In this document: positions 21,520 through 38,121 of the stretch, one piece after another
Layout of the letters: every line of letters starts with the position of its first letter
Position numbering within the stretch: position 1 is the stretch's first letter
Assembly (NCBI GenBank): GCA_964416765.1
Contig: CAYQEU010000001.1
Location: 549,357-613,356, forward strand
DNA length: 64,000 bases
From: an uncultured Candidatus Saccharibacteria bacterium
GTDB taxonomy: Bacteria > Patescibacteriota > Doudnabacteria > UBA920
Direction of reading: 5' to 3'
Position numbers and translations under genes: made by a program
Notes under the pieces: generated by a model
The model's database searches: none
What the model was told of the DNA's origin: nothing
What the model saw: only the letters and a program-made list of their open reading frames with translations

Positions 21520-21550
21520 CACTCCCTCTACGCTTTGGTAAGAGGGAGTG
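21520..21550 (-). terminator. Terminator hairpin at the end of the T4SS-like operon
   Basis: 10-bp stem CACTCCCTCT/AGAGGGAGTG with 11-nt loop, followed on the minus strand by TTATTATTTAAT. Confidence 0.45.
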
Positions 21551-21565
21551 TATTAGGAAGTTGAG

Positions 21566-22735
21566 CTAGGATGCCGGGTTGGCGGTTTTCAAGTTCAGGT
21601 AGTAGAGGCTTTGGTCTTGAAAGTTCTTAAAGAATACATTGCTACCGGTCTGGTCAGGGAAGATATTCCGCGCGTCCACGGGAATCCCAAAATCATACTT
21701 TTTCTGCGTACCGGAGGTGCTAATAACATACAAAATATCCTGGGTTAAGCTGCCGGATCCTGCCGTACCGGTATTTGGGACCGCGGCGTAAATGGTCTGG
21801 CCGTCTTTTGAGAACGAAGCTTTTTCCACGGTGGTTTGGACATTGAGGTTCTTTTCATCCCCTGTGGAAAGGTCACCCAGCCACAAACCATACTTCTGGG
21901 TTTGAGGATCCCTCTTACCAAACAGGAACTTGTTATTATCAGGGCTCCACTTTACGCCAAGGTTGTACCCGTCTTTGATAATGGACTTGAATACTTTACC
22001 ATCTGGAGAAACAAAATTAATTGCGTTGATCGCCCCGGAATTATTAAATCGATAGAACAAAACACTTTTACCATCCGGGGAAACCTTAATTTGGTTATCG
22101 CCTTCGTACAGGTCGCTTAACTGCTTATAGCCGCTGGTGTCAGGGTTGCCCGAATTCAGGAAAGCCTTCCCGTCATTGTTGTTTTGCCACACAAACAAAA
22201 TTTGACCCGTTGTCCCAAACCAGTCGAGAGACTGAACTTCGGCGGGGAGGTCAACATACGCACCCTTACTGCCATCGTAGTAACTCCAGGTAGTACGGCT
22301 GCCACTATTAAATGCTGCAATAAAATTCTGTCCCGTGGGTGCCCAATACACTTCGCTGATGTTAGACTTCTGCGGAATGGTTAGCTCCCTCTTGTTGCTT
22401 AGAACTACTTTATCTCCGGAATTTTGAAGATCTGTCGTATATAGCTGTCCTTGAGCGTTGAAGTAAGAAATGCCTTGGCCATTAAAGTAGAGGGCTGGCG
22501 CCACTACGCTGTCATCAGTCAGTTTCTGGGCCTTGTTGCTGGAGGAGGAAGTATCGTCTGTGTTGGTATTGTCATTTTGACCAGTATTATCTGGGATTAC
22601 TATAGTATTGTTCTGGTTCTGATTTGCGTTGCTATTTGTATTGGATTTCCGCGAACGCAGGAAAATCAGCAATCCTAATGCCAGTACAATAAGCAGGAAA
22701 ATCGCTCCCAAAATGGCTATGGCTTTTTTGTTCAT
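21566..22735 (-). CDS. Membrane-anchored PD40/TolB-like beta-propeller protein
   Basis: N-terminal TM, N/T/Q-rich low-complexity linker, then repeated motifs WAPTGQN, VSPDGKSVLFY, FVSPDGK, WSPDNNKFLFG typical of PD40 repeats. Confidence 0.5.
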   Translation of the reverse strand: MNKKAIAILGAIFLLIVLALGLLIFLRSRKSNTNSNANQNQNNTIVIPDNTGQNDNTNTDDTSSSSNKAQKLTDDSVVAPALYFNGQGISYFNAQGQLYTTDLQNSGDKVVLSNKRELTIPQKSNISEVYWAPTGQNFIAAFNSGSRTTWSYYDGSKGAYVDLPAEVQSLDWFGTTGQILFVWQNNNDGKAFLNSGNPDTSGYKQLSDLYEGDNQIKVSPDGKSVLFYRFNNSGAINAINFVSPDGKVFKSIIKDGYNLGVKWSPDNNKFLFGKRDPQTQKYGLWLGDLSTGDEKNLNVQTTVEKASFSKDGQTIYAAVPNTGTAGSGSLTQDILYVISTSGTQKKYDFGIPVDARNIFPDQTGSNVFFKNFQDQSLYYLNLKTANPAS

Positions 22736-22808
22736 CGTTGTGGTATTTTTGTTTCTTGAAGCTAAATAACTGCCTATATTATAACATATTTCAGCCTAGC
22801 CGGCAAAA

Positions 22809-23639
22809 TCAATTACCCTTGGCGGCTTGGTCAATTAAAGTCTTATATTCGCTATAGAGGTTAGACCCTTCGTCCTTCTTCCCGTTTATGAATATGGTAG
22901 GGGTAGCCCTCACACCTGAATCCTGGCCTAATTTAAACTGCTGGGCAACCGCCTGGGCGGTATCGGGGTTCTTTATGCAGGAATTATATTTCGCCATGTT
23001 TAGGCCCGCTTGTGTGGCCAGCTTTTTGAGCTCAGCGTCCGTAAACACCCCGCTGTTTTCCAACCCCTGGGTATGGTATAGCAGATCGTGATAAGGCCAG
23101 AATTTGTTTTGTTGACGGGCGCATTCGGCTGAGATGGCCGCTGAAGTTGATTCATCGCCGAGGAAAGGAAAGTTAAGGAAATAAAACTTTACTATGCCCT
23201 TATCTATATAATCGGACTTAATCTTGGCAAAAGCATTGTCCTGGAAATCCTTGCAGTAAGGGCATTGAAAATCAGCAAACTCAATCATTGTTACAGGAGC
23301 ATCAGCAGACCCGAGCATTGGGTAGTTTGGGGAAAGAGGAATTTCCACCACGGTATTGGGGTCGGAGTTTGAATTGGTATTGCTGTCGGCCGAGTTAAGG
23401 GTGTTTTGCTGGCCACCCGGCAAATTTACGTTAAATAGGCCAAATCCCGGCACTTTTCCAGATGAAAAGATAACGCTCAGACCAATAATTGTTGAACCAA
23501 TAAGGATGGCAAAGATTATTCCGAGATATCCTAGTACTGATTGACCCTTTTCCGGCCTGTATTCCGAATCGTAATCTTCATAGATTTCTTCGGTGTCCTC
23601 CGGGTGAATGTGGGTTGAAAGTCGTTTACGTTTTTCCAT
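22809..23639 (-). CDS. Membrane-anchored DsbA-family thiol:disulfide oxidoreductase
   Basis: N-terminal TM plus thioredoxin-fold active site CPYC (FADFQCPYCKDF). Confidence 0.75.
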   Translation of the reverse strand: MEKRKRLSTHIHPEDTEEIYEDYDSEYRPEKGQSVLGYLGIIFAILIGSTIIGLSVIFSSGKVPGFGLFNVNLPGGQQNTLNSADSNTNSNSDPNTVVEIPLSPNYPMLGSADAPVTMIEFADFQCPYCKDFQDNAFAKIKSDYIDKGIVKFYFLNFPFLGDESTSAAISAECARQQNKFWPYHDLLYHTQGLENSGVFTDAELKKLATQAGLNMAKYNSCIKNPDTAQAVAQQFKLGQDSGVRATPTIFINGKKDEGSNLYSEYKTLIDQAAKGN

Positions 23640-24277
23640 TATTTTTTATTTCTTCTTATAAACATTATAACAAATACCGCCACAATAGCTACCGCCAACA
23701 TGACAAACACCAGGATCAAAATATTGAATAGCCTGATAGCCGGATCACCTGAGGCATTTGTGTTATTAGCATTCTGGTTGGTTGGGCTGTTGCCGTTGCT
23801 TACTGTCCCGCCGCAATCCATGGGACAGTTATTCTTGTTTTCCCCGGCCTGGGTTTGGCACGACTTATCGTCGTTGCAAATAGCCGTTTTGCTTACCGAC
23901 ACCACCAGCATCGGTTGGTTATCAACGTTGCTTTTATAAAAGGCCACGGACTTAGCGTCGCCAAAATACGGGGCTATAATCTCATTGTCCCCTTCCAAAA
24001 GATCAAAGTGAAAATCACCGAGAGTCTGGTTAGAGAGTGAAAACACGCGGCCATAATACAGGCCGGGACCGTCAACAAATTGCTCGGATATGAAATCATA
24101 GGGCAAAACATCCTTCACTATAGGGGTTAGGTTTCCGTTTTCAAAACGTAAATGGAACTTATACTCCATGGGCCCTAAATCATACGATGAGTCGGCGCTG
24201 GATTGGGCACGGGCCTGATTCGCCAAAAACAGAAGCGCAAGTAGGGCAGAAAATAACAATATCGTTGTCTTTTTCAT
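23639..24277 (-). CDS. Secreted Cys-containing protein with C-terminal TM anchor
   Basis: Signal peptide (MKKTTILLFSALLALLFLANQARA), Cys cluster (CNDDKSCQ...CPMDCGG), C-terminal TM followed by RRNKK. Confidence 0.4.
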   Translation of the reverse strand: MKKTTILLFSALLALLFLANQARAQSSADSSYDLGPMEYKFHLRFENGNLTPIVKDVLPYDFISEQFVDGPGLYYGRVFSLSNQTLGDFHFDLLEGDNEIIAPYFGDAKSVAFYKSNVDNQPMLVVSVSKTAICNDDKSCQTQAGENKNNCPMDCGGTVSNGNSPTNQNANNTNASGDPAIRLFNILILVFVMLAVAIVAVFVIMFIRRNKK

Positions 24278-26106
24278 TAGTTACCTCCTCCGCCATTAAA
24301 TTTAATGTAGCAAGCAAAAACGTACTGGGCGTACTTTTGGCCTTCCTCCACGTACTTATTGCACTGTTGGTGCCCGGCATCGGTCCACAGACATTCCCAC
24401 GACTTCACGGGGCTACCATCGCATCCGGTTTCTCCGGAACAGCTGGTATATTTGCCGTCAGCTACACGACAGTAGTCCGGCCCGCGGTTATAACCGGCGG
24501 CGATATTGCGAACCTCAACCCTCGGTTTACCGCAGGATCCGGCGGCAATAGACTGGAAATACTTAAGCGACATGCAAATTTGTTCGGTAGGATGGCTTTT
24601 GCGCCATTCACGGCTGGAATTGTAATCGTTGGAGCACTGCGGCCCGTATGTATTAGCCGCTCCGGTAGTAAATTGCATCAGACCAGCCGCACCTGTGTGT
24701 GATTCGGCATTAGGGTCACCCCCCGATTCTTGAGTCATGATAGCTTTCAAAAACGCTGAAGTATTGGCAACGCCGGGTATAGGTCCGTAGCGTGCCACAG
24801 CGGCGTCTACCTGGCCCGCCCAATTATTGACCGCGGCTATTTTGGACGCGTTAGTGCAATTACCCCCGAGCTTACCCTGACACAAATTTACGTTGCTAAA
24901 CAAACAACTCCCGCCAGGAGGAGTGAACGTACCCACGGTTTCATCACCGGAAACACTCCCCGCGCTTCCTCCAGCGCCACCACCGCCAAAATCCCCACCT
25001 TTTACACCGCCAGGATTGTTAAACGCCGTACAAAATGAGTCACTACTGGTAGTGGCACTGTCTATGACTCCCCCCACGGCACCGCCGAGCGGTCCGCCTA
25101 CCGCGCTTCCTACTGCGGCTGCCGGGTTACAATAGAGGTACAATCCCACAAAAATTGCCAATATCGTGGCTTCTATTACCATGAAATCCATAATAACGAT
25201 CCCAATCTTTTCCCACCACACAAGGCCCTGCATAACAGCCAGTTCTTTTACGAAAGGGATGGAACCCGCCGCCCAATACACATTTACCGCTGCAAGGGGT
25301 ATTACTAACCCTATTGTGGGAATAAGGGTGCCAAATATTAGTGCTCCCAGCAGGAATAAAACGAACACCACTATTTTGGTGACCGCCCTAATGAAATAGT
25401 GCATGGCTTCTTTAGGGTGGCCCTTGGCCAGTTCGATTGTACCGTCTATAGCGTCAGAAATACCCAAGCTTATTGCAATTACAATTAGCTGAGCAAGGAT
25501 TTCAGTAATACCAAAGGTTTCCAAGGCACCTGCTGCACCCAAAGCTTCTACACCTACCTCCAATCCACCCTCAACCACAGCGTCCGCGCCAATTTTCGCA
25601 CCTTGCTTTACAACCTGCTCAGTGCCTTCCTTAACAACATCCTTTGCACCCGTCTTAACCAAATTCTTTGCGCCTTTTTCCACTCCCTCCTTTACGCCTT
25701 CTTTTGCTTCGCCTTTAAAACGCTGGTTCAGGTACCTTTTGATTTCTTCCTTACCCTCTTTCTTGATGTAGTCTTTGGCCTGCTGCTTTAGTTCTTCACG
25801 GTCCATGGTAGGGCTAAACCCTGCTTTGTTAAGCTTACCCAACATACCACCGGTTTTGGAATCGAGCTTCGATAAAAGCTCTTTTCCTTTAGCAGTCACT
25901 TTTTTTCCGGCTTCAGTATTGGCTAAATAATCGGTCCCCTTAGAAAAAGCTTTCTTCTTTGCCTGATTCGCTATTGTGTCCCTAATACCCCCTGATTTCT
26001 TGGATGAACTTGAAGAATCAGAAACACCCTGGCCAGACGCTTGGACGTCTTCACCAGGGTTTATACTGTCAGCGCCCCGCCTGTTTCGAGTGTCATCAAA
26101 CAACAT
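24277..26106 (-). CDS. Polytopic membrane protein with C-terminal lytic transglycosylase (SLT, VirB1/TcpG-like) domain
   Basis: K-rich cytoplasmic N-terminus, 4-5 TM helices, Gly-rich linker, Cys-rich C-terminal domain with the SLT catalytic signature AIMTQESGGDP...GAAGLMQF. Confidence 0.65.
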   Translation of the reverse strand: MLFDDTRNRRGADSINPGEDVQASGQGVSDSSSSSKKSGGIRDTIANQAKKKAFSKGTDYLANTEAGKKVTAKGKELLSKLDSKTGGMLGKLNKAGFSPTMDREELKQQAKDYIKKEGKEEIKRYLNQRFKGEAKEGVKEGVEKGAKNLVKTGAKDVVKEGTEQVVKQGAKIGADAVVEGGLEVGVEALGAAGALETFGITEILAQLIVIAISLGISDAIDGTIELAKGHPKEAMHYFIRAVTKIVVFVLFLLGALIFGTLIPTIGLVIPLAAVNVYWAAGSIPFVKELAVMQGLVWWEKIGIVIMDFMVIEATILAIFVGLYLYCNPAAAVGSAVGGPLGGAVGGVIDSATTSSDSFCTAFNNPGGVKGGDFGGGGAGGSAGSVSGDETVGTFTPPGGSCLFSNVNLCQGKLGGNCTNASKIAAVNNWAGQVDAAVARYGPIPGVANTSAFLKAIMTQESGGDPNAESHTGAAGLMQFTTGAANTYGPQCSNDYNSSREWRKSHPTEQICMSLKYFQSIAAGSCGKPRVEVRNIAAGYNRGPDYCRVADGKYTSCSGETGCDGSPVKSWECLWTDAGHQQCNKYVEEGQKYAQYVFACYIKFNGGGGN

Positions 26107-26118
26107 GAGCGCGAAAGG

Positions 26119-27960
26119 TTAATTTATTTCTTCTTTGCTTTCCTTGATTTCCAGGAGTTGTTTCGGGTCAGTGGTAATAATTTGGTCTTCTACGTAAGAC
26201 CCATAAATTTTGATGGCGGCGTGCTTGAGACCGGCAAAGAAAATCCCTTCGCCCACATCACTTTCAAGCAAAAGATACTTTTCCCCCTCGGTCAGGAAGA
26301 ATGTTTCGGCAATAACATCAATAGCCGCTGGGCTTTGCTTAAGCAACAATTGGATGGAGGAGTTGGTTACAATTGGTTTCCCATAAGGACTGTTCATGAA
26401 ATCGGCAACGTCCTGCGTAATAGTAGTCAGGCCGAGGTAGTACTTGCGGCAGCGCTTGGCAATACCGAACACGAAGCGAGCGGAGTCTTCGTGCTGCATC
26501 ATAATCCAGGCTTCATCCAGCACCAGAATGCGCCTCTTCATTTCACTGCGCACCAAATTCCAGATATGGCCCAAAATGATATACATGGCAATCGGGCGGA
26601 GTTGATCCTCCAAATCACGAATTGAGAATACCAGGAGTTGGTTGCTTAAGGTAACGTTGGTCGGCTGGTTCAGCAATCCGGCAAAGGTACCTTCGGTGAA
26701 TTTAGTAAGGCGTTGGGCCAAGCTTTCGGCGCCAACCATTTCCCCAAGAACCTCGATAAGGTCATTCATTACCGGTGGTTCCACAGTGCGCAGATCGCTG
26801 TTTTCAGTTATATCCTTCTTGGCGTAGGTTTGCCATAAGGCCTTATCCATGAGAGCTTCTTCGGTAGGGTCCATCTTTCCCAAAATCAGACTAAACAAGC
26901 CGAGCAGGTTGATAATTCCACTGCGCAAAATGTCGGCAGTGTCTTCGTCTTCAATTGCAGCCGGGAGGTCGAATGGATTAATACGGAAGTCAGAGTTAAG
27001 AGATATATTAAGGTATGTCCCGCCGACAGCGTCGGACAAATGCTTGTACTCGTTTTCCGGGTCAACAATGATGACTTCAGTGCCCACCATGAGCGACCGA
27101 AGTACTTCGAGCTTAATAGCATACGACTTACCCGCACCGGATTTGGCAAACACGACGAAATTAGCGTTTTCCATTTTGAACCGGTCGAATAAAATTAAAC
27201 TGTTGTTATGCCGGTTAATCCCGTACAAAATGCCGTCATTCCCCGTAAGGTCCGAAGAAACAAACGGGAATGTAGTGGACAGCGGGGAACTGTTAAGGTT
27301 ATTGGCAATATCAAGCTCGTCCAGCCCAAGAGGCAGGGTAGAGTTAAACCCCTCTTCGGTCTGGAACAAAGCGCGTTTGGTAACCACCAGTTTCGCGCCC
27401 AAAGAGCTTTCCAAAATAGTAGAGCTCTTTTCCAGTTCATCTTTGCTGTTGGCGTATATGGTAAAGTAAAGGGCAAACCGGAAATACTTCTCCGTACCCT
27501 GGGATAGATCGTCACGCAATGATTCTACGTCCTGGTAAGCAGTTTGGAGAACCGGATCGCGAACCATCCCCTTTTCTTCATTTATGCTTATTTGCGAGCC
27601 AATTTCCCCCACTTTAGCCTTTAGCTTTTTCAAAATTACAGCCGAATCAATGGGATAAATGAACATGGACACATCCAGCTCACCTTCAGAGTTGATGACA
27701 AAAGACAGCCAGTTAGTTGAAAGCATACGCGGGTATGCCAGCACGAAAAAGGTACGGGCATACTTGTTGTTGAGTTGGAAGTCGTTGCTTTCAAAGTGCA
27801 AAGCCGAAGGAGCGAGCAAATCCTTCATTGTGGTCAGCCCTTCGCGGTAGTTCTTTTCCACCTCAGCAAGACGGGCATTCTCGTCTAAAGTACCCTTAAG
27901 CTTGGCCAGCTCCTGCTTTTTCTTTTCGAGATCAGTTTCGTTTAGTTTAAATAACGCCAT
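26119..27960 (-). CDS. VirB4/TrbE/CagE-family T4SS ATPase (C-terminal ATPase portion)
   Basis: Walker A (VFAKSGAGKSYAI), Walker B (ILVLDEAWIMM) and surrounding blocks typical of VirB4-type ATPases. Confidence 0.75.
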   Translation of the reverse strand: MALFKLNETDLEKKKQELAKLKGTLDENARLAEVEKNYREGLTTMKDLLAPSALHFESNDFQLNNKYARTFFVLAYPRMLSTNWLSFVINSEGELDVSMFIYPIDSAVILKKLKAKVGEIGSQISINEEKGMVRDPVLQTAYQDVESLRDDLSQGTEKYFRFALYFTIYANSKDELEKSSTILESSLGAKLVVTKRALFQTEEGFNSTLPLGLDELDIANNLNSSPLSTTFPFVSSDLTGNDGILYGINRHNNSLILFDRFKMENANFVVFAKSGAGKSYAIKLEVLRSLMVGTEVIIVDPENEYKHLSDAVGGTYLNISLNSDFRINPFDLPAAIEDEDTADILRSGIINLLGLFSLILGKMDPTEEALMDKALWQTYAKKDITENSDLRTVEPPVMNDLIEVLGEMVGAESLAQRLTKFTEGTFAGLLNQPTNVTLSNQLLVFSIRDLEDQLRPIAMYIILGHIWNLVRSEMKRRILVLDEAWIMMQHEDSARFVFGIAKRCRKYYLGLTTITQDVADFMNSPYGKPIVTNSSIQLLLKQSPAAIDVIAETFFLTEGEKYLLLESDVGEGIFFAGLKHAAIKIYGSYVEDQIITTDPKQLLEIKESKEEIN

Positions 27961-28664
27961 TATTTTGTTTCGGGGGTTAGAGTTACGTTGTCCAATTGGC
28001 TTGCGTCAATTAGAGGTGCAGACTCAAAATTATAAGAGTTGTAGATCAATTCGATGATTTGCTCAGTATTTAACTTTACGGCACGCAGCCCCATGGCATT
28101 CAAGTTGCTGACCACGCTGGTTACGCGCTCTTCCAACATGGAGCGATGGTGTTCAAAATTGGCTTCGCGTTTAGTTATGGCTTTGGCCCGGCCGCGCGCA
28201 AATAAGGAAGAAAAGAACCCGCCGCTGTCTGAACCGATACTTTCATTGTAAGGGACGACGCAGTAAAAATTCTTGTTCATGATATTCCCCGTTTCCACCA
28301 GTTGGTTGATGAACTCGATATACTCGCCAGTCTGCATGCGCAGCAACTCATTGGTCTGCTTCTCCATCATGTCCTTCAGTTTTTCGGTATAACTGCCAAT
28401 ATCCATGCGGCGGCTTTGCATGATTATCTGAATGGAAAAATCCAGCGAATTCAAAAACCGCTGGTAGGAAAATATAAGGGCGTCCTGCTCGCTTTGGCTT
28501 TTCAAGTCAAAGTTAGTGGAAGATACCGCCACCACCGCCCGCAGAGTCCCGTCATCCATAATCATGGTATCCTGCTTGATCTCTTTGGTGCGCAGGAAAT
28601 TCTGGGTGGGATTTATCGATTTATGATGTTTGTTTTGTTTTTTCTCCATCGACAATGTGTTCAA
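27960..28664 (-). CDS. VirB4 N-terminal-domain-like protein (split VirB4, translationally coupled to the ATPase)
   Basis: Pattern MIMDDGTLRAVVAVSSTNFDLKSQSEQDALIFSYQRFLNSLDFSIQIIMQSRRMDI resembles the conserved VirB4/TrbE N-terminal block. Stop/start overlap at 27960. Confidence 0.45.
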   Translation of the reverse strand: MNTLSMEKKQNKHHKSINPTQNFLRTKEIKQDTMIMDDGTLRAVVAVSSTNFDLKSQSEQDALIFSYQRFLNSLDFSIQIIMQSRRMDIGSYTEKLKDMMEKQTNELLRMQTGEYIEFINQLVETGNIMNKNFYCVVPYNESIGSDSGGFFSSLFARGRAKAITKREANFEHHRSMLEERVTSVVSNLNAMGLRAVKLNTEQIIELIYNSYNFESAPLIDASQLDNVTLTPETK

Positions 28665-29082
28665 TGAGCGAATGCTCTTCCGATGCTTGCTGCTGCAAGA
28701 GATAATTCATTTCTTTAATGCGCACCAGTGCGTTGCCTTGCGCCTTTTCCGGTGCTTCTTCCGTGATGGTCGCCTTCCCCTGGCTTTCTACCAAGCTTTT
28801 CCCTTGTTTATGGAAGACAAAATGCTTTGGCTCAAAACTGGAGCCGGCTAAGGCAAACATGGAATTATACAACGGCCTGCCATTTACCTTGATAAAGACA
28901 ATGGCCAAGGCAGGAATTCCGATAAAAACCAACACGAATATTAGTAAAAGTACGCTGTGGCTAAGGTTCCAAGTCAAAAAGGCCAGGACCCCCACACCGA
29001 ATAAAATCCCGAACTGTTTAAAGCCCAAACCCGCTACGAGTTTGTCTTCGATATCGGTAAATTGAGGGACGTTATATTGCAT
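28621..29082 (-). CDS. VirB3/PrgI-like small two-TM protein
   Basis: 153 aa, two adjacent TM helices near the N-terminus, immediately upstream of VirB4 as in monoderm T4SS operons. Confidence 0.4.
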   Translation of the reverse strand: MQYNVPQFTDIEDKLVAGLGFKQFGILFGVGVLAFLTWNLSHSVLLLIFVLVFIGIPALAIVFIKVNGRPLYNSMFALAGSSFEPKHFVFHKQGKSLVESQGKATITEEAPEKAQGNALVRIKEMNYLLQQQASEEHSLIEHIVDGEKTKQTS

Positions 29083-29899: not shown

Positions 29900-31333
29900 C
29901 TAGCTTTGCTTTCTGCTTCTTAATTCGTCCAGTTTTTTGGCGATATCATCCGCGCTAGGGCCCGTTTTTATTTCCGCTGGCGCCACGGGGAGCTGGGAAG
30001 GAACTGCAAGAGCCGCCGCTTTCGAAGGCTCATTCGCTATGGGTTTTACTGCCGGTTTGTCTGCTTCTTTGTCCGCCGGTTTTCGTGATGGTGTTTCGAT
30101 CTTTGGCGCTGGGTCGAACACAATTCCTCCTCGCCCCTTTGTGCGCTGGTTCAAGAAGTCTTGGATGTTCATGGGCGGATTGGCAGTCCGGATATTCATC
30201 TCCTTGAGTTTTGCCTTAATCTCTTCATCTACTTCACTGGATTTGGGTGGTACCACTGGAGCAGGCTTGTCCTCAACTATGTAGCTTTCGGCCGGAAGCT
30301 TGGGCTTGGGTGCTGCGGGTACGAATTTGGCCGCCGGTGCCGGCTTAGGCATGGATGCCTCCACGGGTTTAGGTGGCTGGATAGGAGCTGGCTGGGGTTT
30401 TACTGCCGCAGAAGCCGGTTTGACGACGGCTGTAGGTTTAACCAATTCGGAATTGGTCACCGGTGTTGGTACACTAATCTCATACTTTTCCTCGGACGCA
30501 GGCTGAATGGGAATGTCTTCTTCGATAGGCGGAGCTATTTCAAAATGGGGTTTCAGCAACCAACGATAAAAATCAATTAATTTCAAAAATAGTTTTTTCT
30601 CTTCGGCGTTTAAGGTTTGGACGTTTTTGGACGTAGAAACGTATTTGGCTTCGTCATATGCGTCACGGCCGCTATTTACTGAAGTTAAATAGGGGCGGGC
30701 GTCTTCCAGCCAGTTCTTAATGTAAGGCAATCGCTGCCCATCAATACTGGTCAATTTGGTTGACCCTAGAATCTCTTCGTTTTGGTCCAGCGCCTGGATA
30801 AATTTTTGGGTCCAGGTTAAGTCAAAATTGGCCTGTTCAATAAGGAAGCGACGTTCAAAGCTGGCCAGCAGGTTCAGTCGGGGCAAAAAATAGAGGATGT
30901 CATTGCGCAGGATATCAGCCCATTCCTCGTCGGACAGGTCGTCAAAAACGCCAACTTCAAAAATATTAATAGCGTCAATAAGGTCTTGTCCTACCTGAAT
31001 GTCTTTGCTGTTAATCCACCCTGGCAAATCGCGCATTAAACCGATAGCATACGTGCCAAAATTAAAATCAGCGTCGTCAATGACTGTCTTCAGAAACTCT
31101 GGAACTCCACGGATATCACCGTCGTGGGCCTTTTTACCGAGGTCAGCCAGCTTTAATATGACATTAACCAAAGAATCCTTTATCAGTTCAAAATCGCTGC
31201 TGTTTATGACCTTCCAGATAAGATCCTGGGAATGCTCTCCCAAATTAGGGATTGCAGCAAGGACTGACTGCTTTTGCGCGTCAGTCCAGTTTGATTGGCT
31301 GATTAATTGTGTAAATTCTTCTATTGAAGCCAT
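29900..31333 (-). CDS. Hypothetical protein with long Pro/Lys/Ala-rich C-terminal region
   Basis: No TM and no NTPase motifs; in an operon with T4SS-like genes. Confidence 0.35.
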   Translation of the reverse strand: MASIEEFTQLISQSNWTDAQKQSVLAAIPNLGEHSQDLIWKVINSSDFELIKDSLVNVILKLADLGKKAHDGDIRGVPEFLKTVIDDADFNFGTYAIGLMRDLPGWINSKDIQVGQDLIDAINIFEVGVFDDLSDEEWADILRNDILYFLPRLNLLASFERRFLIEQANFDLTWTQKFIQALDQNEEILGSTKLTSIDGQRLPYIKNWLEDARPYLTSVNSGRDAYDEAKYVSTSKNVQTLNAEEKKLFLKLIDFYRWLLKPHFEIAPPIEEDIPIQPASEEKYEISVPTPVTNSELVKPTAVVKPASAAVKPQPAPIQPPKPVEASMPKPAPAAKFVPAAPKPKLPAESYIVEDKPAPVVPPKSSEVDEEIKAKLKEMNIRTANPPMNIQDFLNQRTKGRGGIVFDPAPKIETPSRKPADKEADKPAVKPIANEPSKAAALAVPSQLPVAPAEIKTGPSADDIAKKLDELRSRKQS

Positions 31334-31341
31334 CGATTATA

Positions 31342-34300
31342 CTAGAATGTTTTTCTATATCTTGGTTCTTTCCTCTCAAAATCGCTGCTAGGAACAATCT
31401 TCGGCTCGTCATCGTTGACTGACGCAGGATTAGGGTTGGCGTTCGGGGTGAAAGTTTGCCCTGCCGGAGCCGGAGTGCTTGGAGCAGCTTGTCCTTGTAG
31501 ATAATTCTTCCTGAATAATGCGATTTTATCGGCGGCTCTGGCCAAAGAATCGGCTTCGGTCATGTTTGGGTTCTGTTCTCTAAATGCTTTGGCCACCTTT
31601 TCGACAGCTTTAGGATCTTCACTCAAGGCTCCTTCATATTTAATTTTCTGGGCCTTGTTAACACGCGTAGCATTTTTATAATTAGTCTCATCCGCATCTA
31701 CTATAAAATGTGCGGCTCCTCCACTCATGATATACCTGTTTTGGCTGTCTTTCTCCGCAATCGCAGAATGGTGGCCATTTCGTGCAATGTCTTGAGGTTC
31801 CCATTTTCTACGCTGGGCAGTTTGATACTCATACATATCTTTCATGTCTTTGGCGCTTTCAGTGTCTCTAATTTTCAAGTTTCCACTTTTGTCACGATAA
31901 GTAAGCCCCATCAACGCCTGGTTTCGTTTGGAAAAGCCTACGCCATTTATAGATTCCAAAACGCGTGCGGCATAGTCTTCGCTAAAAATACCATGCTCAA
32001 CCTGAGCTTTCATAAAGTTAAGGATATCCTTGGATAATTCACCAGTTTTTTCGAAATGATTGTTCGCATCTTCTGAATAACGATCCATTGCGGTATTTAA
32101 GCCATTGGCTTGGGCCAAGGCTAACAAGCTTCCCGCTTGTTGAGTCATACGAGTATTGCCGCTACCTTGGTGCATACCATGAAGCAATTCCTGCACTTGG
32201 TATTCTTCATCCTTGTCTTTCATGTGGTCAGCGTGATGCGCCGCTTCGTGGTCGAGCGTGCTAAAGTACTCATCAGAAACAGGACCGCCACCCAAAAGTG
32301 TTCGTCCTCTGACTTTAATACCTTTGCGGAAAGTATCAAAGGCTTGTCCCTTAACCTGCTTCTCCTGCGCTTCCTTCTTTTCCGTATCCTGCGCTTTATA
32401 ACCTTCGTATTGACGCTTGGGCGTAAGGGCCATACCCAAAGCTTTCAAAGCGCCACCCTGCAGGCCACCCTTTCCTTCTCCTCTTTCAATTAACCTCATA
32501 GCCTGATCAGTCTTGTATCTATTGGCCCTATCAGCAGCAGCCGCACCCCCAGCCTTAGCCGCTTTCCCATACCATTCAAATGGCTTGCGCATTCCCTTTT
32601 CCGCAAAGTTGGCTACTGCTTGCCCACCGTACGTACCGGAACTGGAAGCTGCCTTAAGGCCAACCAAGATAAACAAGATAGTTAAAATTTGACTGCCAGC
32701 GAGGTAAACAAACTGTGAAATTTCCCCGCTAACTTTTTGACTGGCCAACAATTGGGAAAAAGTCCCCTGGTCACGCAGCATGGTGGTCACAAAAACCGCG
32801 GACAGGTTCAGGAAGAATGCCAAAACCGGGGTCATGAAAGCATACTTCAAAAAGTGCGTCCACCAACTTCTGGTGTAGCTGGCTGTTTGGGGCAGGACAT
32901 TCGCCACATAAGCTAGTGGCGATACTAGTAGTAATATCCAAAGGGCCACTATTCGAATTACCAGGAAAGCAGCCAAAGCCAGGAAAGTAAAGAACGCGCC
33001 CAACGCCAATGCCAAGGCGAATATAGGCTTCGTTAGGTTGGCAAACGAGGCGCCGGCCGTGGTAGCGTTGCCGGTGCTGAAGTTACTGGAGTCGGTGAGT
33101 TTGTTGATCGGCTCAACCATCAACTTGCTGCCCAAAGCGCGAATTACATTGGTGCTATCGGGCAGAAACTGTTGTTGCACGGTATCGGCAACGCCCAATA
33201 CGGCCTGGCCAAACACAAGACTAAAGTTAACCAACAAAGCCGCTATAACTACCTTAACCAGCAAGTGCTTATAGTTGTAGCTTTCCAACCGGAATAATGT
33301 ACCCAACCCAATAACCAGCAATATAACAATAAAGAAAATGTTGCAGAGGTTGCGGATGAGCTGCCACCCCAGGTAAATGGCTTCTACGAACACGTCCTGG
33401 TAAGGGTGAACCTGGAGGAGAGACTCAATTAACGGCGCTACCACGTTTGAAAACGCCCAATAAATAATTCTTACATGGGCGAGGATGTAATAAGTTAAAA
33501 TCCTATTTAAAATATCCGCGAGAGTTGAACCGGTACCCCCTAGCGTGCCACTTCCTCCGGTATTGTCAGTAGTGTCTGGCGGTTTATCTTTATCGGCTAA
33601 GTAAGCTGCTTTACCCGCATCAGTATTTGCGTAAACTTTAACATTGATTTTCCTGACAAGATCGGAAGAAACATACGCCGCTTCGGTGCTGCCCGGCAAA
33701 AGCCAATTGGAATAACCGACATATGGAAAAACGTAAAGAGTGTTGATCTGTCCTGTGTCAGAGGCTTTGTTAATTCCATAGGATTCACGGGTGGCTTTAT
33801 CTAAAACAATGTCTGTGGATGCTGGTTCATTCGCGTTTATTGTAAGATATACCGGAAATATTGCGTTGCTGGTTATAAGATATGGGGCAGCTAACTTTTG
33901 GGAACAGCTTCTAACATTAGTGCTAAAGACGACTCCCCCCGAACACAATGTCGCAGGGTCGGCGTTGGTGTATATTAGTCCGAATCCCACAATTTGCCTC
34001 GCGCTCGGCATGACCTTGTCGACATATAAATTGTCCCATCCCACACCCCCTGCGTTGTAGCCGCTTATATAAAGCTTGTCCGGCTTAACCATGGACAGAC
34101 TGGCTGTAATCTTAATAGGGCCGCTCCCCGTACCGGCTGCATCAACCGGACCATCCTTATCAACCAATACACGGAAAAAATCCCCGGGTTTAAACGGATC
34201 AATTTTTACGCCTATATCATCAACACCAAAGTTTCGCTGTGAAAGGTCGGCTTTTGCCGGATTTGAATTCGCAAAAAACACAGTAATTGCAAGCACAAAT

Positions 34301-34353
34301 ACTGTGGTAAACCCTAGGAAGATAGATTTTAGTTTTGGTTTCTTGAAAGTCAC
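31342..34353 (-). CDS. VirB6/TrbL-like polytopic membrane protein with large N-terminal ectodomain and ~470-aa C-terminal cytoplasmic extension
   Basis: GTG start, signal/anchor, ~300-aa ectodomain, then 6+ hydrophobic helices (e.g. IFALALALGAFFTFLALAAFLVIRIVALWILLLVSPLAYV), then a long charged tail containing HEAAHHADH. Confidence 0.5.
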   Translation of the reverse strand: MTFKKPKLKSIFLGFTTVFVLAITVFFANSNPAKADLSQRNFGVDDIGVKIDPFKPGDFFRVLVDKDGPVDAAGTGSGPIKITASLSMVKPDKLYISGYNAGGVGWDNLYVDKVMPSARQIVGFGLIYTNADPATLCSGGVVFSTNVRSCSQKLAAPYLITSNAIFPVYLTINANEPASTDIVLDKATRESYGINKASDTGQINTLYVFPYVGYSNWLLPGSTEAAYVSSDLVRKINVKVYANTDAGKAAYLADKDKPPDTTDNTGGSGTLGGTGSTLADILNRILTYYILAHVRIIYWAFSNVVAPLIESLLQVHPYQDVFVEAIYLGWQLIRNLCNIFFIVILLVIGLGTLFRLESYNYKHLLVKVVIAALLVNFSLVFGQAVLGVADTVQQQFLPDSTNVIRALGSKLMVEPINKLTDSSNFSTGNATTAGASFANLTKPIFALALALGAFFTFLALAAFLVIRIVALWILLLVSPLAYVANVLPQTASYTRSWWTHFLKYAFMTPVLAFFLNLSAVFVTTMLRDQGTFSQLLASQKVSGEISQFVYLAGSQILTILFILVGLKAASSSGTYGGQAVANFAEKGMRKPFEWYGKAAKAGGAAAADRANRYKTDQAMRLIERGEGKGGLQGGALKALGMALTPKRQYEGYKAQDTEKKEAQEKQVKGQAFDTFRKGIKVRGRTLLGGGPVSDEYFSTLDHEAAHHADHMKDKDEEYQVQELLHGMHQGSGNTRMTQQAGSLLALAQANGLNTAMDRYSEDANNHFEKTGELSKDILNFMKAQVEHGIFSEDYAARVLESINGVGFSKRNQALMGLTYRDKSGNLKIRDTESAKDMKDMYEYQTAQRRKWEPQDIARNGHHSAIAEKDSQNRYIMSGGAAHFIVDADETNYKNATRVNKAQKIKYEGALSEDPKAVEKVAKAFREQNPNMTEADSLARAADKIALFRKNYLQGQAAPSTPAPAGQTFTPNANPNPASVNDDEPKIVPSSDFERKEPRYRKTF

Positions 34354-34377
34354 TTATTTAGAGCGAATTGCACCTTG

Positions 34378-34413: not shown

Positions 34414-34417
34414 CTTG

Positions 34418-35611
34418 TTAGCGAAGGTACCGGTCAATACATCTGCTTATATCCGCCGATATATTGGTGGTTCCTTTTATGCAGGCCTGGAATTGGTCGA
34501 TGTCGCCAAAGGTTTCCTGCTGTTTGGAATCGAGGATTGCTGAACGATTTTGGGCGTAAGCCGCTGTACAATCCGCAGCTCCCCTTTTGGCGGCTTCCTG
34601 CTGCTGTGGTGTAACCAATACAGGGTCGCTATCATATATCCCCTGGGAACTTCCATCAATACATTGGCTCAGGCCCATGCTATCCGTAGGACTATCAGGG
34701 TAGGGTAAGTCGGTGCCGCCCCCTCCGCCATTATCCTCATTGGGAGCAGCGATGTTAAGTACTCGACCCGAAGGGGCTTGGTTATCCAGACAAACCATGT
34801 CGAATGGCGCGCAACCCGCGGCCGCGTGGGAATTAATATAACCTTGAAGCGAAGGATCAGAGTAATCCCTAACCATATGAGAATATGGATTGGCAAGAGA
34901 AACGTCATAAAGAGGAGCGGCGCTGGGGTTGGAGCCCTCAGTGCCGGTGCTGACGCCTAGTACCCGGCTCGATAGCTGATAATCAGAAACCAGTTTGGCG
35001 CAAGTGCTCGCGTTGGTCTGGTCATCACACAAAGTCACGCACTTGCTTGCAGTACCGCAAGCGGCAAAGTCACGGCTAGAAAGCAAGCCAACAGCCATGC
35101 GCGTTGCTACGTCAATCATGTCCGGTTTCATGTAACCTTGTTTGACTGAGAAGGTGGCACAAAGCGGTACATGGGTAAGCTGGTCACAAAAATCCAAACA
35201 AGCTTGCTGACTAACACAGTTGTGTAATTCCGTGATTGGGTAAGTGTAACCGAGCATGTAAGTTTTGATGGGCGCGGTTGGCTGCATGTCAGAAGCGGTC
35301 ATAATAACTGCTGCCGCTCCCCCGTTGGAAGTCGTGCTAATTCCGCTCGGCTGGCCCGGGAATGGATTAACATAAATTCCCTGCAGCGGATTTGCCTGCG
35401 GATTGTCGCTCGCTCCCAACACCGTGCCTTTGTCTTCCGGCAATGAGCTCGCGCTGGACTGTGCCGCCGCCACTACATTACCAGTCACTGGCTTGCCCTG
35501 ATGGATGGCAAACTGGGTCCGCACCGACTTGACCAAGTAACTGGTCAGCCCAATGGTCATGAGTGCGGCCAGGAGCAGTAAGCTTAATTGTGTTTTTCTT
35601 TCAACGCTCAT
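34418..35611 (-). CDS. Membrane-anchored Cys-rich extracytoplasmic protein
   Basis: N-terminal TM, ~20 Cys residues; no recognisable domain. Confidence 0.4.
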   Translation of the reverse strand: MSVERKTQLSLLLLAALMTIGLTSYLVKSVRTQFAIHQGKPVTGNVVAAAQSSASSLPEDKGTVLGASDNPQANPLQGIYVNPFPGQPSGISTTSNGGAAAVIMTASDMQPTAPIKTYMLGYTYPITELHNCVSQQACLDFCDQLTHVPLCATFSVKQGYMKPDMIDVATRMAVGLLSSRDFAACGTASKCVTLCDDQTNASTCAKLVSDYQLSSRVLGVSTGTEGSNPSAAPLYDVSLANPYSHMVRDYSDPSLQGYINSHAAAGCAPFDMVCLDNQAPSGRVLNIAAPNEDNGGGGGTDLPYPDSPTDSMGLSQCIDGSSQGIYDSDPVLVTPQQQEAAKRGAADCTAAYAQNRSAILDSKQQETFGDIDQFQACIKGTTNISADISRCIDRYLR

Positions 35612-35616
35612 ATAAA

Positions 35617-37248
35617 TTATTTATTGCCCGATGTTTGATGCTGGTTCGGCAGGTTCGGGTTCGTGTTACTCAGCTGTCCTTTAAGCTGCGCCAATCCTTC
35701 GTTAATCCCTACCGGCAGCAAAGAGTTGGCGGTGTTGGAAAGGAATCCGCCAAAAGTGGTTCCGTTCTGAATGCCGAACAATTCGTCCGCTACTGTTTTA
35801 CCAAGCTTGGAAGCGATTTTGCCAGCCAGGGTTGGATGAGTGGTGTTGTATTTGGTCTGGTCGAACAATGACTGCATCCACTTATCGGAAGCATTGTGGG
35901 CTTCCTGGGCTAGAGTCTTGATGTTGCGGTCGCAAGGTTCGAGTATGCCCGTACCAACTTTATTCTGAAGGTCGTTCAGGGCCTGCACGGCGGCATTGTA
36001 AACCTGCTGCGCCTGGTCAATCTGGTCTTTGATGGCGCGGTCAACATCCGAAATTCCGGTATTGCCACCGCCCTGATTTTTCAAAATCTGCAAGGCTAAT
36101 GCAGCTTCGCCCACCTTATTAGTAGCTGCCGCCAGGTCGCTGTTGATCTTAGTTTGTTCTGCGGTCTTATCAGTACAAGTTCGGACGTTCTTAAACTGGT
36201 TGCCGGTTTGCATTTCCTGCTGAGCCAATTTGTCGCTATCAGCCAGGAAGCGGTCCACGTCAGACATCCCGGTGTATAGATGAGTTTCCGACCAGCTGCG
36301 TTCGTCCCCGGCGTCGGAGACTTTGCCCCAGTAATCAGGGCTTGTCCAGTCCAGCGTGTCCGCGGAAACCTGGTATTTACTGGCTTCAACAGCGGCCAGG
36401 TTCTTGGCAGTAGTAAGTCCGGTCACATCACCCAGTACCTGATTCTTGTATAAGGATGCCGCAATCAACCGGGTCCGTTCATTTCCTTTAGCGGACTTGT
36501 TGATTTCCTGGATGCCATAGATTTGGCTTTGCAATGCTTGCTTGAGCAGGTCAGGGTCACGGTTACCCAATACACTACTTAGTGTCTTGATGCCGCGAAT
36601 GGAAGCTTCCTGCTGCACCGCCATGGTAAAGTTGTACATTATTCCTTCGAACACGTCGGAGAAAGCCTGGTCCTCTTGCTGTTCGTATTGGGCAAGTTGG
36701 GTCTGCAAGTCAGCTTTCTTTTGGTTGATGATAGTGCGGTTATGTTCGATGTTATCCGACTGGGAGATACTCGCGCCTTTTGCGTTGTCTACCGCGATAG
36801 AAAGCGGTACCCAGCAAGCGGTAAGTTGGTTCAATGTCGAATCAACTTTGTAGGCCGGGAAAAACGTATTGCTTACGTCTGTTTTGTCAGAACCAGCAAT
36901 AACTTTGCCAGCCCGGTCGGCCAAGTCCAAAAAGATATTTGAATCGTTAAACTTATCACAGTAAGTCGGGTTGAGGAGCTGGTCAGTTACCACGCGTTCC
37001 CAAGGGGTACCGTCGGCCACAAATTTAGCGGTGCTAACAGCAGCGTTGGTTGTCGTCGAAACAGAAGTGACACCAGTAGTAACGGTGGTAGCCGCTCCTT
37101 CAATTTCTTGAGGGGGATCTGCGCAAAAGAATGGTGGGCAGGGAATTCCGAAAACGGCTTTTGTTTGATGGTGCGGATATACCAGACCTCCACAAACAAT
37201 ACTCAAGACTAGAATTGATATTGAAATTCTCTTAAAAACCAACATCAT
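35617..37248 (-). CDS. Secreted coiled-coil protein (T4SS-associated, function unknown)
   Basis: Signal/anchor, CPPFFC motif, long Q/A/L-rich predicted helical regions. Confidence 0.4.
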   Translation of the reverse strand: MMLVFKRISISILVLSIVCGGLVYPHHQTKAVFGIPCPPFFCADPPQEIEGAATTVTTGVTSVSTTTNAAVSTAKFVADGTPWERVVTDQLLNPTYCDKFNDSNIFLDLADRAGKVIAGSDKTDVSNTFFPAYKVDSTLNQLTACWVPLSIAVDNAKGASISQSDNIEHNRTIINQKKADLQTQLAQYEQQEDQAFSDVFEGIMYNFTMAVQQEASIRGIKTLSSVLGNRDPDLLKQALQSQIYGIQEINKSAKGNERTRLIAASLYKNQVLGDVTGLTTAKNLAAVEASKYQVSADTLDWTSPDYWGKVSDAGDERSWSETHLYTGMSDVDRFLADSDKLAQQEMQTGNQFKNVRTCTDKTAEQTKINSDLAAATNKVGEAALALQILKNQGGGNTGISDVDRAIKDQIDQAQQVYNAAVQALNDLQNKVGTGILEPCDRNIKTLAQEAHNASDKWMQSLFDQTKYNTTHPTLAGKIASKLGKTVADELFGIQNGTTFGGFLSNTANSLLPVGINEGLAQLKGQLSNTNPNLPNQHQTSGNK

Positions 37249-37988
37249 AGCACCACTCCGTACTGCGCGCTTAACTGGACGCGCGTTGTTTTGATTTTAT
37301 CGCCGAGGGAATAAAACAACGATGCGGCGGAAACCGCGTTGTCGTCCGGTCCATTTGGCGACATGCTTAACGCCATCTGGGCAAGCGAAGTATAATAAAC
37401 AATTTTCATCCGGTGAAACTGCTCAAACTGGGAAGGAACTTTGAGGTTGCGCAATTCCGCGACAACCGCTTTATAAGTTTGCGCGGAACTTTCCAAGCTT
37501 TGCGGGTCGCGGCCGGACAAAGCACCAATGGCAAAGTTGGTGCCGTACTGGCTTTCAATTTGGTGCAGTTGTAGCGCGTAATCATTCAAGTCATAACGGT
37601 CGTTGGTTTGGTAAACGTTCAAAGGCAATGAAGTAACCAGATCGGAATTCAAAACTTCCTCAGTGTCGACGCTGGTATCAAGCCCCGTGCTGGCGCCAAG
37701 AACCGCGCCGGGAGCGGACATGGTTGGGTCAAGCTCAGCGAGCTGCGATTGGGTCTGCCCATCATCGGCGGAACCCTGAGCGCCGCCCTGCTTCGCTAAA
37801 ATTTCCCGCGCCTGCGCTAGTGCTTGTTCGTAAGTCATGCCTGGCTTGTCGGCCTTGGCATGGCCAAAATTAAAAGCGCCTAAAGTGAAACCGCCGCGCA
37901 TGAACAAAGCCGCGGTTAAAGCAACGACGCTTAAAACAATAAGTTTAATGTGGCCTCTGGCAAAAGAGGTCCCGGAATCAGATTCCAT
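37245..37988 (-). CDS. Membrane-anchored hypothetical protein, first gene of the block
   Basis: N-terminal TM (IKLIVLSVVALTAALFM); preceded by an extended -10 TGCTATAAT on the minus strand (about 38062..38070). Confidence 0.4.
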   Translation of the reverse strand: MESDSGTSFARGHIKLIVLSVVALTAALFMRGGFTLGAFNFGHAKADKPGMTYEQALAQAREILAKQGGAQGSADDGQTQSQLAELDPTMSAPGAVLGASTGLDTSVDTEEVLNSDLVTSLPLNVYQTNDRYDLNDYALQLHQIESQYGTNFAIGALSGRDPQSLESSAQTYKAVVAELRNLKVPSQFEQFHRMKIVYYTSLAQMALSMSPNGPDDNAVSAASLFYSLGDKIKTTRVQLSAQYGVVL

Positions 37989-38121
37989 ATTTATTGATTG
38001 AATTGTGTTTTTGTTTCTATGTGGAACTATTTTGGTTCCGCTAGATTACTCACTATATCCTTATTATAGCATAGTTTAAGAAAAATTGCAACCGCATTTA
38101 GACGACTCTCCCCCGCGGGCG

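Follow-up and report, generated by a model that had tools for sequence, protein, structure and literature searches.

We analysed a 64-kb stretch of contig CAYQEU010000001.1 (the window), with a focus on the region 21520-38070, which had been predicted from its sequence to encode an apparatus resembling a type IV secretion system (T4SS). The region contains 13 intact open reading frames (ORFs), named g01 to g13 here, which span 21566-37988. All of them are on the minus strand, as the original prediction had stated, and the gene calls in a public record of an identical contig agree with all 13. Lengths are given in amino acids (aa), and TM stands for transmembrane segment.

g01, 37245..37988, minus strand, 247 aa: bitopic membrane protein without a family, the first gene of the block
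g02, 35617..37248, minus strand, 543 aa: secreted or anchored protein with 7 Cys, without a family
g03, 34418..35611, minus strand, 397 aa: Cys-rich ectoprotein with 14 Cys, without a family
g04, 31342..34353, minus strand, 1003 aa: extended VirB6/TrbL-like polytopic protein
g05, 29900..31333, minus strand, 477 aa: cytoplasmic, hypervariable protein without a family
g06, 29110..29898, minus strand, 262 aa: cytoplasmic protein of a lineage-restricted family
g07, 28621..29082, minus strand, 153 aa: PrgI/VirB3-like protein with 2 TM
g08, 27960..28649, minus strand, 229 aa (234 aa from an upstream TTG): TrsD/TraD-like protein
g09, 26119..27960, minus strand, 613 aa: VirB4 ATPase, its Walker A motif being GAGKS and its Walker B motif DEAW
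g10, 24277..26106, minus strand, 609 aa: polytopic membrane protein, its C-terminal domain a Cys-rich SLT lytic transglycosylase
g11, 23639..24277, minus strand, 212 aa: has a signal peptide, 4 Cys and, at the C-terminus, a TM anchor
g12, 22809..23639, minus strand, 276 aa: membrane-anchored DsbA-type thiol-disulfide oxidoreductase (CPYC)
g13, 21566..22735, minus strand, 389 aa: anchored PD40/TolB-like beta-propeller, between the T4SS and radA

The genes were expected to be joined by overlaps of 1-4 nucleotides (nt), and such overlaps were found at four of the 12 junctions. The other junctions consisted of one 29-nt overlap, four gaps of 1-12 nt, one gap of 27 nt and the two widest gaps of the block, 64 nt before g04 (VirB6) and 73 nt before g13 (PD40), each of which contains a promoter-like site. 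The best sigma-70-like sites on the minus strand, which are consensus matches only, were located in these two gaps (the site at 22806-22778 belongs to g13), just upstream of g01 (38091-38063) and upstream of radA. Terminator-like sites were no more frequent in the region than in shuffled sequence. Since the upstream gene is a DUF192 gene on the plus strand (38134-38658, E = 3.8e-27), which is also called in public records, the co-directional block ends at g01; downstream, the co-directional run extends into radA on the same strand. A 173-aa, Arg-rich ORF without a family on the minus strand (38098-38619) was considered and rejected, as the DUF192 gene covers this stretch.

The VirB4 ATPase, the TrsD-like protein and their membrane partners

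The g09 protein was placed by NCBIfam in conju_CD1110, a family of VirB4-like conjugal ATPases, with a score of 350.7 bits (curated cut-off, 325) and an alignment over profile positions 158-728 of 752. The original prediction had named clustering of the ATPase with FtsK, TraG, VirD4 or other non-VirB4 AAA families as a result that would undermine the T4SS interpretation; we found instead that it is a VirB4, the only marker common to all T4SSs. The only other NCBIfam matches above E = 1e-10 were to the VirB4 of a Mycoplasma integrative and conjugative element (ICE), TraC, VirB4_CagE, Bacteroides TraG and the DNA-import ATPase CedB, the last of which was weak (E = 3.9e-14); no VirD4 or FtsK family was listed among the NCBIfam matches. 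Pfam matches were P-loop_TraG (E = 2e-26), AAA_10 and CagE_TrbE_VirB, and the best solved structure was the C-terminal domain of VirB4 from Thermoanaerobacter pseudethanolicus (4AG5, E = 1.2e-46). The protein was also aligned with residues 221-772 of PrgJ from plasmid pCF10 (E = 6e-43). All the motifs reported earlier are present, namely GAGKS and DEAW in this 613-aa protein, ES...GLMQ in the 609-aa protein (g10) and CPYC in the 276-aa protein (g12).

VirB4 has thousands of close homologues, and among the 120 matches listed the named ones were from Patescibacteria or Candidatus Doudnabacteria. We compared 80 genome loci, all from candidate phyla radiation (CPR) metagenome-assembled genomes (MAGs) that are named Candidatus Doudnabacteria, Patescibacteria group or "uncultured Saccharibacteria". 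The nearest relatives were Candidatus Doudnabacteria MAGs with the same gene order, and a JGI relative had an identical 13-gene layout with similar gene sizes. The more distant loci (~60% VirB4 identity) were from Moran-, Uhr- and Portnoybacteria. The conserved order was VirB6-g05-g06-PrgI-TrsD-VirB4-variable gene(s)-PD40-radA-recG, and matches were distributed over the 80 loci as follows.

VirB6: 57 loci
g06: 56 loci, at the same position
PrgI: 72 loci
TrsD-like (g08): 77 loci, in each adjoining virB4
VirB4: 80 loci
PD40: 70 loci
radA: 60 loci
recG: 52 loci

Two contigs of a single MAG (CAZLAR01; L027 and L028) both carried TrsD-VirB4-PD40 segments, with VirB4 DNA 96.8% identical, which means either that the bin mixes strains or that the T4SS is duplicated.

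We investigated the relationship between g08 and VirB4. The g08 protein matched the NCBIfam profiles VirB4_plasma (Mbov_0397 family; positions 91-237 of 894, E = 4.2e-11) and conju_CD1110 (positions 16-116 of 752, E = 2.6e-4), both below the curated cut-offs, and a precomputed TraC-like match (PF26593) was present. Against the TrsD profile NF041427 it reached 25.7 bits (E = 8.6e-6), and the curated cut-off is 200 bits; g08 is therefore a distant homologue, TrsD-like or VirB4-N-terminal-like, and not a member of the TrsD subfamily. The CD1110 positions matched by g08 (16-116) and g09 (158-728) indicate that the two proteins, laid end to end, cover a monoderm VirB4 of full length. When the PDB was searched with a profile of 36 g08 homologues, there was no match, and the hhalign comparison of this profile with the N-terminus of PrgJ was not significant; the homology of g08 to VirB4 was settled by the NCBIfam profiles.

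The two genes had been described as a split VirB4, made up of an N-domain ORF and an ATPase ORF. As a statement of homology this description is correct. The idea of a recent split is not, g08 being a long-established TrsD/TraD-type gene, and neither is the assignment of domains, since the 613-aa ORF has a CagE_TrbE_VirB N-domain of its own at residues 52-210. In the 77 related loci carrying a g08 homologue, this was always a separate ORF and never fused with VirB4. Long VirB4 homologues (690-807 aa) were examined as candidate TrsD-VirB4 fusions and rejected, as they contain Pro-rich N-terminal extensions in place of g08. Comparison with a close relative gave ratios of nonsynonymous to synonymous substitution (dN/dS) of 0.003 for g08 and 0.007 for g09, at dS 0.5-0.8. 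The separate genes in 77 loci, the long VirB4 proteins without g08 and the low dN/dS values together indicate that g08/g09 is not a recent break, and the very strong purifying selection on VirB4 and TrsD indicates that the machine is in use. The order VirB3-like/TrsD/VirB4 is that of pGO1-type systems.

Membrane partners resembling VirB3 and VirB6 are both encoded near virB4. The g07 protein matched Pfam PrgI with 39.7 bits (cut-off, 27; E = 7.5e-10) and contains two TM, and its homologue was located directly upstream of the TrsD-like gene in 72 of the 80 loci. The 1003-aa protein g04, which had been predicted to be VirB6-like, matched Pfam TrbL slightly above the cut-off (27.4 versus 25.9 bits, E = 3.6e-6). 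When the TM cores of homologous VirB6 proteins from related loci were searched, 21 of 31 matched TrbL and no other family, and precomputed matches to TrbL_3 (PF19590) in public records agree for g04/VirB6. A search of PDB sequences with a profile of the VirB6 TM core gave no match. Judged by sequence, g04 is VirB6/TrbL-like, as predicted. It has at least six TM segments, and its architecture comprises an N-terminal ectodomain (residues ~31-327), a TM core (~328-570) and a cytoplasmic tail (~571-1003). The translocon set evident from the sequence thus consists of g04 (VirB6), g07 (PrgI/VirB3), g08 (TrsD-like) and g09 (VirB4 ATPase).

Other genes of the block and their variation among relatives

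The topology and composition given earlier for the block's proteins (TM, signals, Cys and Pro counts) hold, and Pfam confirmed the VirB3/PrgI-like, SLT, DsbA and PD40 assignments. At the upstream end, g01 has one TM and a helical C-terminal ectodomain. It had no significant match in Pfam, NCBIfam or PHROGs, and homologues were found upstream of the T4SS in 8-9 related loci. Both g02 and g03 start with signal or anchor segments, and no family was found for either in Pfam, NCBIfam or PHROGs; g02, g03 and g10 gave nothing significant against PDB sequences. The dN/dS of g02 was 0.03, and its identity was 93.6% in the closely related locus L082 and 37-38% in locus L001, whose VirB4 is 93% identical. 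All 14 Cys columns of g03 were invariant in an alignment of four homologues (39-90% identity), which fits the presence of the DsbA-type protein g12. This enzyme is encoded in the same block as the Cys-rich exported proteins g02, g03, g10 and g11.

The two proteins encoded between VirB6 and PrgI, g05 and g06, have no TM and contain ~10% Pro. BLASTP indicated that they are not paralogues. The g05 protein has a helical N-domain, a long Pro-rich disordered region, a conserved NIQDFLNQR...GGIVFD motif and a conserved C-terminal IAKKLDELRSRKQS motif, together with a conserved basic C-terminal helix. No family was found for it in Pfam, NCBIfam or PHROGs, and its AlphaFold2 (AF2) model, built with five homologues, was too poor to be used for a fold search (mean predicted local distance difference test score (pLDDT), 47). 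In g06, a bundle of three helices at the N-terminus is joined by a disordered, Pro-rich linker, in which an SHISNLP motif is invariant, to a helical C-terminal domain that was modelled with a pLDDT of ~90. Foldseek found no match for the g06 model in the PDB with E <= 0.001. Its family is lineage-restricted; a search of 1.84 billion proteins gave 449 cluster representatives with E <= 1e-3.

Downstream of VirB4, g10 is a polytopic protein with 14 Cys that occupies the position of VirB1/PrgK, in which a peptidoglycan hydrolase follows virB4. Its residues 450-544 matched Pfam SLT (E = 3.6e-12), and the PHROG endolysin and transglycosylase matches were to the same domain, which was the sole PHROGs match among the ORFs without a family. 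The g11 protein occupies the position of PrgL (VirB8-like). It showed no detectable similarity to PrgL and no family in Pfam, NCBIfam or PHROGs, and tblastn across the 80 loci gave no match; the JGI relative has a 214-aa gene at this place. The g12 protein matched Thioredoxin_4 (E = 1.2e-37) and DSBA (E = 1.3e-13) in Pfam, and a DsbA gene was present in this slot in only four of the 80 loci. The g13 protein matched Pfam PD40 with 26.5 bits (cut-off, 20.9). Its homologue was found next to radA in 70 of the 80 loci, and in locus L073 the PD40 gene has stayed with radA at a distance from VirB4. It may be that the DsbA and PD40 genes are part of the radA neighbourhood and not of the machine.

The window was compared with L082. 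Protein identity was 99.5% for VirB4, 99.6-100% for TrsD, 98.7% for PrgI and 92% for g06; that of g05 was only 41%. No blastn similarity was found over 34320-33533, which encodes the VirB6 ectodomain, or over 32546-30320, which encodes the VirB6 cytoplasmic tail and the first ~340 codons of g05, and the DNA flanking these replaced stretches was 83-87% identical. The N-terminal ~130 residues of g05 gave no protein alignment at all with L082. The same hot spots, and the gene after VirB4, were variable in three other independent close pairs (L021/L022, L013/L015 and L011/L047). Among 52 ORFs after VirB4 that were scanned in relatives, SLT or SLT_3 was found in only seven and T4SS_pilin in only two; M15/VanY and one PT-TG pre-toxin domain also occurred, and most of the ORFs had no match. 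Between near-identical machines, cassette-like replacement thus recurs in the ectodomain and the cytoplasmic domain of VirB6, in g05 and in the gene that follows VirB4, an observation that may be new. That the machine carries exchangeable specificity modules on a frozen motor is a tentative idea, and we think it unlikely. If it is true, the choice of host envelope could depend on the VirB6 ectodomain and the choice of cargo on the VirB6 cytoplasmic tail together with g05; alternatively, g05 could be an effector that is itself translocated. The pattern of variation marks places in which to look for determinants of host range and substrate.

The slot after VirB4 also yielded two side observations. 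The PT-TG pre-toxin domain (E = 1.2e-9), a hallmark of polymorphic toxins, came from one relative, which hints that the slot can hold toxins or effectors. The two T4SS_pilin genes came from two distant relatives.

Genomic neighbourhood and missing components

The rest of the window is made up of housekeeping genes. Ahead of the block it contains rseP, frr, holB, miaA, gatA, gatB, lemA, htpX, recX and clpC, followed by comFC, a gene for an extracytoplasmic function (ECF) sigma factor, three tRNA genes, recG and radA. Beyond the block are DUF192, ksgA, uvrD, a LysM-CHAP hydrolase gene and a gene for a DUF11 surface protein, and further on recO, ileS, argS, glycosyltransferase genes, smpB, tmRNA and a gene for a giant fn3 protein. 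Three neighbours are regarded as context and not as parts of the machine.

radA/sms, 20160..21509, minus strand: has the Pfam domain set of this protein
recG, 18071..20159, plus strand: convergent neighbour
comFC-like, 14383..15042, plus strand: zinc ribbon and phosphoribosyltransferase; found in 6 loci within reach of the flanks

The true start of recG is later than the listed GTG at 18009, because a tRNA-Arg(CCG) gene occupies 17995-18070; RecG has 685 aa in the public call and 716 aa in the longest ORF. The two tRNA-Ser genes, which are at 15103 and 17304, are identical over 39 nt of their 3' part. The genome around the block is probably small. Within ~35 kb around the T4SS lie several genes for recombination, repair and competence, namely recX (11247-11741), comFC, recG, radA, uvrD/pcrA (39498-41681) and recO (45787-46536). 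The ECF-type sigma factor gene (15362-15970) overlaps the start of a DUF5667/DUF5666 gene (15960-17141), and the pair is located between comFC and recG; the DUF5667/DUF5666 protein may be an anti-sigma or envelope-sensor partner of the sigma factor.

On the opposite strand, 4 kb upstream of the block, lies a gene for a LysM-LysM-CHAP cell-wall hydrolase (42219-43280, plus strand). Its CHAP domain matched that of pCF10 PrgK (E = 7.5e-7), indicating that SLT (g10) and CHAP, which are fused in PrgK, are separate genes here. Two large probable surface proteins are encoded on the minus strand, one of 598 aa with DUF11 repeats (43947-45743) and one of 1332 aa that is fn3/purple-acid-phosphatase-N/SASA-like (59910-63908); it is possible that these are adhesins of the kind essential in Southlakia. 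A probable smpB (56019-56447), recognised by eye from the sequence, and tmRNA (58511-58902; Rfam, 120 bits) are separated by ~2 kb of DNA that contains a PLD-like gene and several small membrane ORFs.

The absence of VirD4, VirB11 and a relaxase, which had been noted earlier, extends to the whole window. Pfam and NCBIfam scans of the ORFs in the 64-kb window found no match to a VirD4/type IV coupling protein (T4CP), relaxase, VirB11 or integrase family, and the window ORFs scanned gave no match to the outer-membrane core proteins VirB7, VirB9 and VirB10. Tblastn with PcfC (VirD4) and PcfG (relaxase) of pCF10 gave no match, either in the window or in related loci totalling ~1.4 Mb, and the absence of VirD4 and relaxase covers these sequences only. 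The lack of VirB11 is normal for monoderm T4SSs. No att-like direct repeats flank the block, the only repeats being the tRNA-Ser paralogy and short chance matches, and the GC content is uniform across the window, without a shift.

Interpretation and comparison with known systems

Taken together, these results make it very probable that the block is a chromosomal, non-conjugative T4SS of the type found in Patescibacteria (CPR), here in a Doudnabacteria-like genome, and that it descends from monoderm MPF_FATA conjugation machinery. Its layout matches two published accounts (Wang et al. 2023; Quinonero-Coronel et al. 2025), which supports this interpretation and indicates that the kind is known. 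Systems of this kind were described in 2023-2025, and the block is a further member, not a new system. The T4SS of Southlakia epibionticum (SEML1_0006-0019; Wang et al. 2023) is unusual and Gram-positive-like; epibiotic growth depends on it absolutely, and neither a coupling protein nor a relaxase can be recognised in it (PMC10633639). In a survey of 3,035 Patescibacteria genomes, VirB4 was found in 2,417, nearly all within one clade of MPF_FATA (Quinonero-Coronel et al. 2025; PMC12102498). There, TrsD, VirB3 and VirB6 adjoin virB4, and TrsD is the most abundant component beside it; ksgA lies near virB4 in some classes, and recG/radA/comF do so in class ABY1 (PMC12102498). The survey's genome table lists at least one genome of class Doudnabacteria with VirB4 (PMC12102498). 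In a 2025 review, the patescibacterial systems count as a new and recognised branch within the T4SS superfamily (PMC12857230). They are the first T4SSs shown to be essential for the survival of their carrier and the leading candidate for a conduit between epibiont and host (PMC10633639, PMC12857230).

In the mechanism that we propose, VirB4 and TrsD, docked on VirB3 and VirB6, would power assembly of, and transport through, a channel across a single membrane. The SLT domain would open the cell's own peptidoglycan and possibly also that of the host, and the DsbA-type protein would oxidise the surface proteins that are rich in Cys. Contact with the host cell could be made by a surface part formed from the variable VirB6 ectodomain and g01-g03, and g05 and g06 could be cytoplasmic accessory or substrate-handling proteins. 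By analogy with Southlakia, the apparatus would move macromolecules across the epibiont-host interface, for growth on the host rather than for plasmid or ICE transfer. The transport may consist of effector export or of import of host material; possibilities considered in the literature are effector export, signal exchange and uptake of host molecules.

Several points weigh against this interpretation. Substrate, effector and direction of transport cannot be read from the sequence, and the functional data come from Saccharimonadia, another class. The MPF_FATA placement is based on best-profile matches, best-structure matches and the published tree. Scans detected no VirB8-like protein by sequence match, and the window contains no T4SS_pilin match and no small ORF with a signal peptide and two TM as expected of a VirB2-like pilin. 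Pilins are essential in Southlakia; in the survey, a VirB2-like pilin near virB4 was frequent and not universal (1,135 of 1,948 pilin-carrying assemblies; PMC12102498). The lineage may build a different surface structure or encode pilins elsewhere. The original prediction held that most components lack a recognisable family, and this is true of seven of the 13 proteins (g01, g02, g03, g05, g06, g11 and the N-terminal part of g10), the others having matched profiles. The only good structure model obtained, that of g06, had no fold match. Finally, g01-g03, g12 and g13 may be adjacent genes that do not belong to the machine: promoter-like sites precede g04 and g13, and DsbA is present in only four of the 80 loci.

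We considered three other explanations. The block could be a nucleic-acid import machine like ComB or Ced, through which DNA or RNA from the host or the environment is passed to the adjacent recombination and competence proteins. Its location among recX, comFC, recG, radA, uvrD and recO agrees with this, and the adjacency of radA and recG (60 and 52 of the 80 loci) survives rearrangement in the Uhrbacteria locus L073 and in L079. The same context in class ABY1 led to the suggestion of functional coordination (PMC12102498). Synteny within a class can, however, be inherited order rather than functional coupling, and radA/recG are not linked to the T4SS in the loci from Moranbacteria and Portnoybacteria. 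The block has neither a relaxase nor a linked T4CP, as is the case for ComB and Ced, and VirB4 has its weak CedB match, but this match is far weaker than those to conjugative VirB4 proteins. According to a 2026 preprint, a cultivated patescibacterium takes up host RNA and has tubular structures that may be T4SS pili (10.64898/2026.06.21.733656). In Southlakia, transformation requires ComEC and type IV pili, and deletion of comEC ends competence but not viability (PMC12857230); since the T4SS is essential there (PMC10633639), its essential role is not ComEC-dependent DNA uptake. On balance, we consider an import machine unlikely.

The block could also be a T4SS that still functions in conjugation or mobilisation, with its coupling protein, relaxase and oriT encoded elsewhere in the genome. 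The ancestry of the machine is conjugative, and VirD4-like genes were found in 2,918 genomes of the 3,035-genome dataset, mostly far from virB4 (PMC12102498). Against this, the window has no T4CP, relaxase, integrase or att repeats and has housekeeping flanks, nothing resembling PcfC or PcfG occurs in the ~1.4 Mb of related loci, and the survey found 109 relaxases in 103 of 3,035 genomes, only 15 of them near virB4 (PMC12102498). In addition, the T4CP homologue of Southlakia is not essential whereas its T4SS is, and the synteny is conserved vertically across the class, unlike that of a mobile element. A conjugative function is therefore very improbable. The view that the block encodes a dedicated secretion, uptake or contact apparatus rather than a conjugative element, which the original prediction had put forward, is also the conclusion reached in PMC10633639 and PMC12102498. 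The distribution of VirB4 over two ORFs, the lack of a relaxase and T4CP and the many ORFs without a family could alternatively point to the decaying remnant of an integrated conjugative element, the split VirB4 being a product of pseudogenisation. All 13 ORFs are nevertheless intact and called identically in public records, the TrsD-like ORF belongs to a known family and is separate in 77 of 77 loci, g08 and g09 evolve at the very low dN/dS given above, and synteny is kept across classes. The selection and conservation data refute this explanation, and we give it practically no credence.

Patescibacteria make up a large share of bacterial diversity and are epibionts with minimal metabolism. 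As a non-conjugative patescibacterial T4SS, the block represents a clean, complete example from a class without functional data. Its core motor of TrsD, VirB4 and VirB3 is under extreme constraint, and its value lies in the catalogue of conserved components without a family and in the cassette-like variation.

For VirB4, the profiles matched best were CD1110 (Clostridioides/Enterococcus) and Mbov_0397 (Mycoplasma ICE), and the solved structure matched best was that of Thermoanaerobacter. The gene set had been likened to Gram-positive conjugative channels, and this is borne out by Enterococcus faecalis pCF10, in which the order PrgH (VirB6)-PrgI (VirB3)-PrgJ (VirB4, CD1110 family)-PrgK (hydrolase)-PrgL corresponds to g04-g07-g08/g09-g10-g11, and by the alignment of g09 with PrgJ. 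Relative to pCF10, the first five positions are kept, g05, g06 and g08 are inserted, and the DNA-processing half is missing from the window. The pCF10 system is encoded on a plasmid together with PcfC (VirD4), the relaxase PcfG, oriT and the adhesin PrgB; PcfC, PcfG and PrgB are absent here. VirB6 has 1003 aa here and 266 aa in PrgH, VirB4 is encoded by two genes, and the hydrolase g10 has SLT only, whereas PrgK also has CHAP. When the 13 proteins were compared with PrgD-PcfC of pCF10 by BLASTP and phmmer, only VirB4 matched (PrgJ).

A separate TrsD/TraD-type gene between the VirB3-like gene and VirB4 is shared with the staphylococcal pGO1/pSK41 Trs and the pIP501 Tra systems (TrsC-TrsD-TrsE). 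These, unlike the block, are plasmid-borne and conjugative and have a T4CP and a relaxase. Helicobacter pylori ComB and archaeal Ced resemble the block in being VirB4-based, chromosomal and without a relaxase, with competence or recombination neighbours. ComB, however, is a diderm VirB2-4/6-10 set, and the match to Ced is far weaker than the matches to conjugative VirB4 proteins.

In comparison with the Patescibacteria clade, the block differs in that its window has no VirB2-like pilin array, g05 and g06 are located between VirB6 and VirB3, DsbA and Cys-rich ectoproteins are encoded in the operon, and the class is Doudnabacteria-like. It is like the T4SSs of this clade in being chromosomal with housekeeping flanks, in having VirB6, VirB3/PrgI, TrsD and VirB4 adjacent and a hydrolase after VirB4, in having no relaxase or linked T4CP in the window, and in its ksgA and recG/radA/comF context.

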